Positions 576-3,339 of a stretch of 20,000 nt of DNA are shown one piece after another. This DNA is from Elsinoe ampelina. Taxonomy: Eukaryota. Made by a program: the position numbers and the translations under genes. The DNA is taken from positions 724,718 through 744,717 of the forward strand of contig ML992505.1 in NCBI GenBank assembly GCA_010093995.1. Reading direction: 5' to 3'. The stretch's first letter is position 1. The number at the start of each line of letters is the position of its first letter. The notes under the pieces were generated by a model, which saw nothing but the letters and a program-made list of their open reading frames with translations, was not told the DNA's origin and searched no databases.

Positions 576-1021
576 CAGCTCGCAAACTCTCGTGGTTCCT
601 GCATGGGCTTGGCGAGCAGAAGCACCCCACGCCCGCCATCCCAACTCAGTCGCGTCGCTGGAATTTGGGACGCCAGCTGAATGATTCGAGCTTTCACAAT
701 CCACCGCACTGCTATAGACAATCTCAAGAGAAAGACAGCAAGATCGGCATAGACAGCGTACTCTGTCAAGACTGAAAATCAGCAATATCCCTACCCCAGC
801 CCCGCCGAACGACGCGTTACACCGCTTCTTCAACCCACGTCAATCAAGAACCTCGCTAGTACCTTGCGTCAGTTGCCCGGCTCCGTAGTCGGCAGCCCAT
901 TGCTGCATCCGCATCGTAGCCCGATCAGAAAAAACAGCACGACTCGACTGCCAGCGCATCAATTACGAAGGAGCCGCAGCCAAGGATCCACCACCCATAC
1001 CGCTCTCGTCAACATCATATC

Positions 1022-2547
1022 ATGTCTCAGAGCCCAAGGCCGGAAGGAGACGATGAAAAGCAGGACAAGTCCCCAGATACTGAGGGAAAGGAGGAAGGAC
1101 AACAAGAGATGTCGCATGACTACCCACCAGAATATGAGGTAGATTCATCTCTGCTTGCTCTCAAGGTACACATGCTGACATGAGCAGGTCAAGGAGCAAG
1201 ATCGTTGGTTACCCATAGCGAATGGTAAGTCTTGATTCCACATGTCCCCGTCATTGTGTTGCACAAGGGGGCGCGAATACGAAGAATCCCTTGGTCGACC
1301 GCATCACGAAGCGCCGGCAGCTGCTCAACATGGGGCGGCATCATCCCTCGACTCGAGCCTGGACGCCCGCTATTTCATCTCGCCAGCCACACCTCTTCTT
1401 CCCCGTCGAATCAGAGACATATCACACTCTTCGTCGGGATCAATCATTTTTCTTCTATCAGTGATCTTCAAGGCACGCAACATCTCGACTCGCGGATCTC
1501 TAGCACAGACCACTGTTCACCATCATGTCAAGTGGCCCAGGAGGTTCTTTCATGCCGGTATTTCATAGCAAGCCCACGTCGGCACCCGAGGTGACTGCCG
1601 GCATGCGACTTCCACCAATACAAGCTCCGCCGCGATATCCCAGCCTCAGCTACACCTATTCGTCCGCGTCCACCCAATCGCCATCTTCACACGCCTCCCC
1701 GCATACGCCTTACAGCGCTCCCTCTCCAGCGTTTTCCCATGCGACCACGACGACCGCTTTACCTGCCCAGAGCACTCCGGCAGCAGCATCCGCATCCAGG
1801 GCGTCCTCGTTCACCGCCAAGGCGTCATCGTCGGGATCCGACACCTCCTCCCGCGGTGCCTCAACCTCTGCCGCAATTCGCATCGACACCCCAGGAATTT
1901 CCGCCGCCACAAGACGCACGCTCAACAATTCTGACGCATGGATTGCTAACTATGCACCAGTCGCTCGATTGATGAAGACTGCTCTTCCTGAGAACGCAAA
2001 GGTATGTTGGCTCGATCTTCCAACAGACTTGCTCTTCGATCTCGGAGCTTCGGCAACGATGAAACAACTGCTGACATGCATCAGATTGCCAAAGAAGCAA
2101 AAGAGTGCCTGCAAGAATGTGTTAGCGAATTCATCTCCTTCATCACGAGCGAAGGTGCGTCGTCAGAAGGCAAGCATTCTTCTCCACAGCTAATGCAACG
2201 CAGCCGCCGAGAAGTGCCAGCAAGAGAAGCGCAAGACCGTGAACGGAGAAGACATCATCTTCGCCATGACCTCCCTCGGTTTCGAAAACTATAGTGAAGC
2301 CCTCAAGATCTACCTCAGCCGCTACCGCGAAGTGCGCCCCTCCTCCCACGTCTCCGAACCCTACTGACCCATCCAGACCCTCGTAGCCCGCGGCGACCAG
2401 AAAGCAGGAGCAGGCGGACAAGGCGGCAACGCATCCGGCGGCGAGTACGACACCTCCAACCAAGACATCATGGGCGGCGCCATGGACAACACCCAGCAAG
2501 GCGACTACCCCTACGGTGTCCCCGGCGCGGCTGGCGATTTCCAGTAG
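1022..2547 (+). CDS. HAP3: CCAAT-binding complex subunit Hap3/HapC (NF-YB histone-fold protein), 187 aa, 6 exons
   Basis: Exons 1022-1138, 1188-1224, 1961-2001, 2085-2154, 2204-2331 and 2377-2547 join through GT-AG introns with branch sites. They give MSQSPRPEG...[101 protein letters not shown]..., the canonical NF-YB/Hap3 core. Confidence 0.96.
1525..1960 (+). other. Candidate alternative first coding exon of HAP3 inside intron 2
   Basis: ATG at 1525 (context CCATCATG, A at -3) opens a stop-free 145-codon S/T/A/P-rich frame with an LPPI motif (1609-1620). It reads straight into exon 3 in frame (...[26 protein letters not shown]). Confidence 0.5.
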
Positions 2548-3339
2548 GACTCCAGAGTGCCTTCGCCGCTGCCGATGCCCAGGAGTGCTGAGCAGATACT
2601 ACGGGACTGGATCTCGACGTGGCAGGATCGAGTGGCGAGAGAGACGGCGTTGGAGGAGAAGGAGGGAGGTGGCCTGCTTGGAGAGCTGGGGGAGGCGAGC
2701 AGCACTTGAGTGTGTCGTGCTGAGGTCGCCGGTGATGTGGAATGTGGTTACGAGAAGCACGATACGCGAGGGGATGATGTGTGGGGGGCTGTAATGGGAG
2801 GTATTCTGATTCTTGCGCATACTTTCCTCGGACGATCCGCTGCTGTACGATAATGATGTTGAAAATGAAACTGTGATTGACCACGGGATGCGCTTTGTAC
2901 AGTCATCTTTCATCCTTTCATCAATGCATGACAATGGTGGGGACGATATTTAGGGATGGATATGGGGATGCAGTGCAGTGTTGCATTTGATTTATCTAGT
3001 AGCTTTCTGGGAATGTTGTGATGGGTTTGTGAGTCGCGTGTGTTGGGGACGAAGTCATGATTGATGGCTGGTCGCGCCATGTCGTTATGTTGCTAGATCT
3101 GCATGTGCTATTGACACGCTGGTATCATGCTGTGATGGACTCGTGGGAACGTGGTGCGGAGCGTGCTGGGAGACTCGTGCTATTGTGCTTGTGGTGTGCA
3201 AGTCGTGCTGCGAGATTGTCGATGCTGGGTATGCATTGCGGAAGATGGGTCTTTCGAAAGCTTGAGCACGAAGCTCTTGTGATGCGAGAGCGTTTCCGCA
3301 GTGTCGTCGATTGGGGGCGTACGTGAGTTGCAAGGCTGT

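Follow-up and report, generated by a model that had tools for sequence, protein, structure and literature searches.

A candidate alternative first coding exon within the long second intron of the Hap3/HapC gene of Elsinoe ampelina

The Hap3/HapC locus and its second intron

We analyzed a 20,000 nucleotide (nt) stretch of Elsinoe ampelina DNA (GenBank assembly GCA_010093995.1, contig ML992505.1, forward strand positions 724,718 to 744,717), referred to here as the window, and all coordinates are positions within it. The window carries the gene for Hap3/HapC, the NF-YB subunit of the CCAAT-binding complex, and the oversized second intron of this gene is the subject of this report. Rebuilding the gene model from the sequence placed the gene at 1022-2547 on the + strand with six exons separated by introns of 49, 736, 83, 49 and 45 nt, in agreement with an earlier sequence-only reading that had described one intron of 736 nt and four of 45-83 nt. 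Comparison with related fungi and with public transcript contigs suggested that intron 2 holds a genuine alternative first coding exon that would give a 281 residue form of the protein from a minor mRNA initiated within the intron, a reading to which we assign a probability of about 75%. The canonical gene consists of the following features.

1022..1138, + strand: exon 1, starting at ATG 1022 and encoding an acidic N-terminus (gene model and joint 1136/1138 to 1186/1188 in four runs)
1188..1224, + strand: exon 2, encoding 12 residues plus the first base of a Val codon and matching residues 1-12 of the HapC core 4g91_B (joint 1223/1224 to 1960/1961 in four runs)
1225..1960, + strand: intron 2 of the canonical mRNA, 736 nt, GT..AG (gene model and splice joints)
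1961..2001, + strand: exon 3, common to the canonical and alternative forms (gene model and joints)
2085-2154, 2204-2331 and 2377-2547 including the stop, + strand: exons 4-6, encoding the remainder of the histone fold plus the C-terminal tail

Splicing was evaluated using contigs from four public runs (X1, X2, X3 and X6) belonging to three studies. All five introns, including the 736 nt intron, were spliced exactly at the model sites, and because the contigs hold all five joints the canonical gene model with its oversized intron was confirmed. None of these runs is labelled as RNA, but their spliced joints show that they contain RNA-derived sequence. The canonical protein was 187 amino acids in length, identical to the E. 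ampelina Hap3 database model P0003, and matched Pfam PF00808 above the gathering score, with 97.4 bits over profile positions 1-65 of 65. It aligned end to end with the 92 residue crystallised core of Aspergillus HapC (E 4e-52) and contained the LPIAN segment at the start of helix alpha-1.

Within intron 2, ATG 1525 was found to be in phase with exon 3 with no stop between 1504 and 1960. Recomputing the product from the sequence bore out what the sequence-only reading had described, a 281 amino acid protein in which the first 51 residues of the canonical form are swapped for 145 residues. Counting from 1464, the first ATG met is ATG 1525, in the context ttcaccatcATGtca. The alternative product lacks LPIAN at the start of alpha-1, with IANYAP there instead, and keeps everything from VARLMK onward. 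A pyrimidine tract that had been noted near 1447-1460 was located at 1444-1458 followed by CAG at 1459-1461, and no other acceptor-like site of the intron reaches 12 pyrimidines in 15. CT-rich blocks precede transcription starts in filamentous fungi. A hosted non-coding RNA such as a small nucleolar RNA was considered as the cause of the large intron and rejected, as no known RNA family matched (Rfam, 600-3300, both strands, 0 matches at E up to 1). The features proposed within the intron are as follows.

1444..1461, + strand: pyrimidine tract and CAG, CT-box-like or acceptor-like, just 5' of the first base of the X1 contig described below
1464..2001, + strand: proposed alternative first exon with an approximate 5' end, continuous with exon 3 (526 nt contig of run X1)
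1525..1959, + strand: candidate alternative N-terminal coding region, 145 codons, beginning MSSGPGG (three-base periodicity, the Elsinoe batatas model P0001 and alignment with E. australis and Sphaceloma murrayae)
1609..1620, + strand: LPPI island (codons 29-32), invariant in 4/4 Elsinoe-clade sequences
1930..1959, + strand: Elsinoe form of the SDANIRNFAP motif, in which S, D, A, I, N, A and P match the consensus of the 43/43 non-canonical models described below
1945..1950, + strand: GCTAAC, a putative branch point by its consensus, forming codons Ala141-Asn142 of the alternative exon

A conserved exon within intron 2 of related fungi

To obtain an unbiased sample of Hap3 N-termini in other fungi, only the histone-fold part of the E. 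batatas Hap3 model (P0001) was used as the query and the best 120 Hap3 models were compared. Seventy-six were canonical, one lacked VARIMK and 43 carried other sequence before VARIMK. The '...APVARIMK' variants that the sequence-only reading had mentioned among fungal Hap3 proteins were therefore real and widespread. All 43 non-canonical models ended this sequence with N[FYH]AP, exactly DANIRNFAP in 29 of them; 16 started there with Met and 27 read through from LPIAN. The typical exon encodes about 33-38 residues consisting of MS-x-x-SP, a Ser/Pro-rich stretch, a few basic residues and SDANIRNFAP. Searching with an alternative-type N-terminus produced 102 new matches among the best 120 listed and every one of them (102/102) carried the motif. 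Named carriers belonged to five classes of Pezizomycotina: Dothideomycetes, Arthoniomycetes, Eurotiomycetes (Chaetothyriales), Lecanoromycetes and Leotiomycetes. Many of the alternative-type models are intron-naive open reading frame (ORF) calls on genomic contigs and show conservation of the DNA, not transcripts.

The same region was then compared at the DNA level. A degenerate pattern for DANIRNFAPVARIMK retrieved at least 115 metagenome loci (L001-L115), 91 of them distinct and 71 distinct for exon 2 spacing. The tests that are independent of this pattern are the protein sample of 120, the presence of the exon's own ATG, the frame relation to exon 2 and the ratio of nonsynonymous to synonymous differences (pN/pS). 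Canonical exon 2 followed by G|GT was found 184-556 nt 5' of the motif in 74/74 loci whose upstream DNA exceeded 300 nt, so both N-termini belong to one gene. The homologous intron measured 184-556 nt with a median of 304 nt in the 71 distinct loci and was long everywhere. An in-frame ATG was found 18-56 codons upstream of the motif with no stop between in 90/91 distinct loci as compared to 23/91 and 1/91 in the control frames. The context of this ATG (..atcATGtc) is shared with ATG 1525 and codon 2 encodes a conserved Ser and is free at its third base, with entropies of 0.52, 0.15 and 1.78 bits at its three positions. In the stretch from ATG to motif, which lies outside the pattern, pN/pS was 0.38 over 22 independent pairs as compared to 1.14 and 1.57 in the shifted frames, and differences by codon position 1/2/3 numbered 68/53/130 (p=2e-9). 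These values indicate that in relatives the exon evolves under purifying selection in its own frame, and the frame preservation and selection that the earlier reading had asked of orthologous introns were thus both found.

Transcription of the exon in relatives was evaluated from ORF calls made on read assemblies. P0189 (26 member sequences) and P0102 joined the alternative N-terminus to an intron-free histone fold. In the related genomic loci L004 and L025 the histone fold is interrupted by introns, which are translated in the sibling ORF calls P0170 and P0194. As related loci have introns and the caller is intron-naive, the intron-free calls show that spliced mRNAs beginning their ORF with the alternative exon exist in relatives.

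The alternative sequence could also be a tail added to the canonical protein (LPIAN, tail, VARIMK), produced through the acceptor at 1459-1461 or by intron retention. In its favor are the models of E. australis and Sphaceloma murrayae (P0005, P0006), which are built in this way, the in-frame read-through seen in 27 of the 120 best models, and the strong acceptor-like site of the window, whose last base (1461) precedes the start of the X1 contig by three bases. In the window, however, neither route keeps the frame, as the exon 2 frame read into intron 2 stops at 1233 and a splice from exon 2 to 1462 would meet a stop at 1566. At its 5' end the X1 contig is free of exon 2 sequence, and a 1224-1462 joint was not reported. 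In the 71 distinct loci the motif lay in frame 0/1/2 relative to exon 2 in 18/30/23 cases, and because this relation is unconstrained read-through from exon 2 is not the conserved feature; an in-frame retained intron was ruled out by these frames together with the stop at 1233. The conserved ATG and Ser2 would moreover be needless in an added tail. We therefore consider an added tail very unlikely. As the frame relation is unconstrained, the 27 fusions of LPIAN to the tail (P0005, P0006 and 25 others) are most likely annotation chimeras. A separate group of models (P0127, P0128, P0158, P0161, P0167 and others) begins MA-x-[ND]-S-[KQ]-W, which is the exon 2 sequence RWLPIAN read off frame by one base from an ATG in CG-ATG-G through the GTTAGT 5' splice site, a recurring artefact of intron-naive gene calling.

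The 3' end of the exon appears to carry splicing signals as well as codons. In the 91 distinct loci the first Ala of the motif was GCT in 91/91, the following codon was AAC in 81/91 or AAT in 10/91, and Pro was CCA in 91/91. GCTAAC corresponds to the consensus of fungal branch points, and CCA together with the first base of the Val codon (G) supplies the acceptor CAG. The third bases of the Ala-Asn and Pro codons are frozen because they are apparently the branch point and acceptor of the canonical intron, and going by the consensus the last ten codons of the alternative exon would double as the branch point and 3' splice site that remove the exon from the canonical mRNA. In the window GCTAAC (1945-1950) lies 9 nt further 3' than in the metagenome loci and this coincides with the Elsinoe changes of N to W and R to A.

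Another explanation would see the conserved block as a non-coding element of the canonical intron that acts in regulation or splicing, for example by tuning Hap3 splicing, with an ORF that is incidental everywhere. The fixed third positions of GCT and CCA (91/91 each) and the prevalence of AAC would fit such an element, as would a second conserved element near the 5' splice site in 28/71 loci. Against it, the low pN/pS was confined to the ORF frame with differences concentrated at third positions, the in-frame ATG was nearly universal in that frame only, and spliced ORFs starting with the alternative exon exist. Synonymous variation like that of exon 3 codons was found in the motif at Ile, Asn, Phe, the second Ala and Arg, the last of which switches between CGN and AGR; this variation is partly built in as the locus pattern fixes the motif amino acids. 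On this evidence an exclusively non-coding role everywhere is the least probable of the explanations considered and has only a slight chance of being correct.

The element near the 5' splice site has the sequence TGATTTGC (often ...GCGC, with variants TGATTCGCG) and was found ~19-190 nt past the 5' splice site of intron 2 in 28 of the 71 distinct loci, with medians of 33 nt from the splice site and 177 nt to the alternative ATG. Additional 8-mers are shared around -90 to -110. The element may be a promoter or splicing-control element and is absent from the window. Autoregulation through CCAAT boxes in the intron 5' of the alternative ATG was considered and rejected: 27 boxes were found as compared to 21.5 expected in the 71 loci, in 22 loci as compared to 18 expected, and the corresponding part of the window's intron has no CCAAT box.

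The enlarged Elsinoe exon and its transcript evidence

The coding part of the exon measured 145 codons in the window as compared to a median of 36 (range 31-63, 88 distinct sequences), and the distance from the 5' splice site to the ATG was 300 nt as compared to a median of 198 nt. The closest relative was the E. batatas model P0001, which is 279 amino acids in length and has the same start as the alternative form. Its N-terminus was 94-95% identical to the tail, with 7 substitutions and one 2-codon in-frame gap in 145 residues and 1 difference in the 136 shared residues. Taken as a proxy for the alternative form (9 differences in the tail, 1 elsewhere), P0001 matched PF00808 above the gathering score, with 86.8 bits over profile positions 6-65 of 65. 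For E. ampelina and E. fawcettii the database gives the canonical form, and the E. australis and Sphaceloma murrayae models are 342-345 amino acids in length with LPIAN plus an insert of 155-157 residues.

Tail lengths in the four Elsinoe-clade models ranged from 143 to 157 residues. All four keep the Met, LPPI and the ending SDA-x-IAN-x-AP-VAR and are otherwise only 38% identical to the window sequence. The retention of LPPI, which the earlier reading had set as a test, was observed in 4/4 sequences. LPPI, which that reading had taken for an LP[SP]I-type motif common in fungal transcription regulators, is absent from the usual ~36 residue form of the exon. Together the comparison indicates that the Elsinoe ORF is an enlarged member of the ~36 residue exon family, with an enlargement that is common to the four Elsinoe-clade sequences and holds the LPPI island. 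No Pfam family matched the 145 residue tail, and a Hap4-type motif for binding the CCAAT-binding complex, which had been considered for the likeness of LPPI to IPP, was rejected on the same search. The HapX motif contains IPP according to passages in PMC7144946.

Transcript evidence in E. ampelina itself came from run X1. In addition to the spliced contigs, this run held a 526 nt contig covering 1464-1989 with 0 mismatches and no joint across 1960/1961; strand, start and level are unreadable from contigs. The contig ends where the assembly graph joins the spliced form. No retained-intron contig was found for the other four introns in X1, with all pieces accounted for. The contig gaps at 1225-1463 and 2850-3131 are present in all runs and carry no meaning, and word depth is no measure of expression.

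Several observations weigh against a genuine alternative exon in Elsinoe. An equally long in-frame run was obtained in 8.7% of dinucleotide shuffles of the intron and 9.7% of local shuffles, and the openness of the frame was rejected as evidence of coding (p about 0.09), because C abounds on this strand and stops are few in each of its three frames; intron 2 holds 8 stop triplets on the + strand over all three frames as compared to 31 on the - strand. The codon-usage score of the ORF, using a table from six neighbouring ORFs, was -4.17 as compared to -3.9 for real exons and -4.06 for a shifted-frame model on the same triplets. The odd amino acid composition may explain this poor score, and general codon-usage scoring was set aside as uninformative for such a composition. 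Out of 1.84 billion representatives, an exhaustive HMMER search with the tail retrieved the E. batatas model alone, a word-index search among longer proteins again returned this model only, and the tail evolves fast, with 9/145 positions differing from E. batatas as compared to 1/136. The unspliced contig was present in one of four runs at a word depth of 3.7 as compared to 208-396 for the spliced contigs and could be unspliced pre-mRNA or antisense RNA. Part of the conservation of the motif is owed to splicing signals and not to protein, in addition to the built-in part of its synonymous variation noted above. The Elsinoe DNA compared was that of the window, and the selection figures cover the exons of relatives. 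Among the best 120 matches of each search no named record from Eurotiales or Sordariomycetes was found among the alternative-type matches, and a tblastn search with Aspergillus glaucus HapC against the metagenome loci found no close relative. AlphaFold2 modelling of the alternative-type Hap3 P0111 with 19 sequences gave a mean predicted local distance difference test score (pLDDT) of 51.6 and less than 50 over residues 7-35; helices modelled at 24-31 and 34-43 are not trustworthy and the motif has no confident structure.

Much of this would be expected if the Elsinoe ORF were a by-product of a C-rich, stop-poor intron whose 3' end is kept for splicing, with the X1 contig being pre-mRNA and the short exon perhaps real elsewhere but decayed here. 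Such an account fits the shuffling result, a codon-usage score no better than that of shifted frames, the fast-evolving tail with no homologue beyond one model, the role of GCTAAC and CCA-G as splicing signals, and a low-depth contig in a single run. It is harder to reconcile with the three-base periodicity of the ORF (C 23/59/37% at codon positions 1/2/3, chi-square p=5e-7), which gave no signal in the 300 nt of intron 5' of the ORF (p=0.83). The Met, LPPI and terminal motif were kept in four diverged Elsinoe-clade models of similar tail length, the length difference to E. batatas is a single 2-codon gap, ATG 1525 shares its context with 90 homologous loci, and X1 retained none of the other four introns. 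We judged a by-product unlikely and favor the genuine alternative exon. Of the second isoform that the sequence-only reading had proposed from the intron, an alternative N-terminus with its own start found good support in the comparison. The stop-free frame offered as its evidence was not significant by itself. The other two + strand frames over the ORF are also open at 1569-1934 (121 codons) and 1595-1972 (125 codons), which follows from the C-rich NCN codon composition, and these frames are not extra genes.

A proposed second form of Hap3 and its relation to known systems

Under the favored reading of an alternative first exon, a minor mRNA would start within intron 2, near or before 1464, and ATG 1525 would be used. 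Reading of the 145 codons would continue past the canonical 3' splice site into exon 3, with introns 3-5 spliced as usual. The predicted product is a 281 residue Hap3 in which the acidic N-terminus and the first turn of helix alpha-1 are exchanged for a Ser/Thr/Pro/Ala-rich tail and the rest of the histone fold is unaltered. We infer an internal promoter because a ribosome loading at the canonical cap would meet ATG 1022 first, and translation in Elsinoe and an effect on the CCAAT complex are likewise inferred. The sequence-only reading had proposed that the second isoform could still dimerise with Hap5, might bind DNA differently and could act as a dominant-negative subunit. In our view the alternative form would most likely still pair with Hap5/HapE with a changed N-terminus of alpha-1. 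This N-terminus is a point of contact with the DNA backbone in histone-fold pairs, and the Ser/Pro-rich tail is probably phosphorylatable. Our guess would be a modified backbone contact at the alpha-1 N-terminus combined with a phospho-regulated tail.

A broader reading would be that most filamentous ascomycetes make two Hap3/HapC forms from one gene, the second from a promoter in intron 2, with the choice of splicing and start maybe coupled and the second form maybe retuning or antagonising CCAAT-complex binding or the recruitment of HapB/HapX, and with the tail in Elsinoe enlarged fourfold with an LPPI island. We offer this only tentatively and hold it to be rather doubtful in its full extent.

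The alternative form shares everything from VARLMK onward with canonical HapC/Hap3/NF-YB (Aspergillus nidulans HapC, PDB 4g91/4g92; human NF-YB, 4awl). It lacks the first 12 crystallised residues of the HapC core and has a 145 residue low-complexity tail where the canonical form has a 39 residue acidic one. As in transcription factor isoforms made from alternative promoters, one gene would give two N-termini on a shared DNA-binding and dimerisation core. In contrast to those isoforms, the swap here cuts into the histone fold with no separate activation domain left to vary, and the exon has no splice site of its own to exon 3 but runs through the canonical acceptor. Candida albicans has two Hap3 paralogues, Hap31 and Hap32, that are said to serve different iron conditions; this too provides two Hap3 versions for one CCAAT complex, with separate genes there and one gene here. 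Splice isoforms of other NF-Y subunits have reportedly been described (Li et al. 1992, J Biol Chem 267:8984, cited in PMC6652802).

The same N-terminus joined to the histone fold is present in the database models P0111 (Botryosphaeria dothidea 'transcriptional activator hap3'), P0116 (Cadophora 'transcription factor HapC') and P0001. The alternative-type models are given as one form per genome and are not marked as isoforms of one gene. Both alternative first exons and isoforms of NF-Y subunits are known kinds, and models with the Hap3 alternative N-terminus are already in the databases, unremarked. A full-text literature search, with subscription papers (among them the first reports on the cloning of hapC and of Trichoderma hap3) outside its scope, found no description of an N-terminal isoform of Hap3/HapC/NF-YB, and the string NIRNFAP occurred in 0 papers of the full text searched. 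The passages reached by term searches in PMC5913809, PMC7078317, PMC7144946, PMC13221647 and PMC6652802 likewise contained no Hap3/HapC N-terminal isoform.

Structural and genetic work on the complex presumes one HapC with a fold that starts from LPIAN, where the crystallised core begins. In filamentous fungi this complex has control over iron homeostasis, redox sensing, secondary metabolism, sterol synthesis and the response to azoles. If true, a second N-terminus that occurs in five classes, is under purifying selection and lacks the LPIAN segment would be an unrecognised layer of a well-studied regulator. Coding sequence that at once serves the canonical intron as branch point and acceptor would also be an unusual case of dual coding. 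For annotation the consequence is direct, as more than a third of the best Hap3 models (43/120) carry the alternative exon and 27 of these are read-through chimeras with both N-termini.

Three further observations concern the flanks of the canonical gene. Four ATTGG boxes (inverted CCAAT) lie 5' of the Hap3 start at 226, 441, 474 and 566 and none is present as CCAAT; with ~2 expected by chance per 1 kb they are at most a weak hint of autoregulation. The spliced contig in run X1 reaches at least 112 nt beyond position 500, and the X2, X3 and X6 contigs begin at 717-755. The extended X1 contig (about 388-755) could represent a longer 5' end or an overlapping upstream transcript. At 2647 in the 3' untranslated region, runs X2, X3 and X6 carry a G>A change that X1 does not, which is probably a strain difference.

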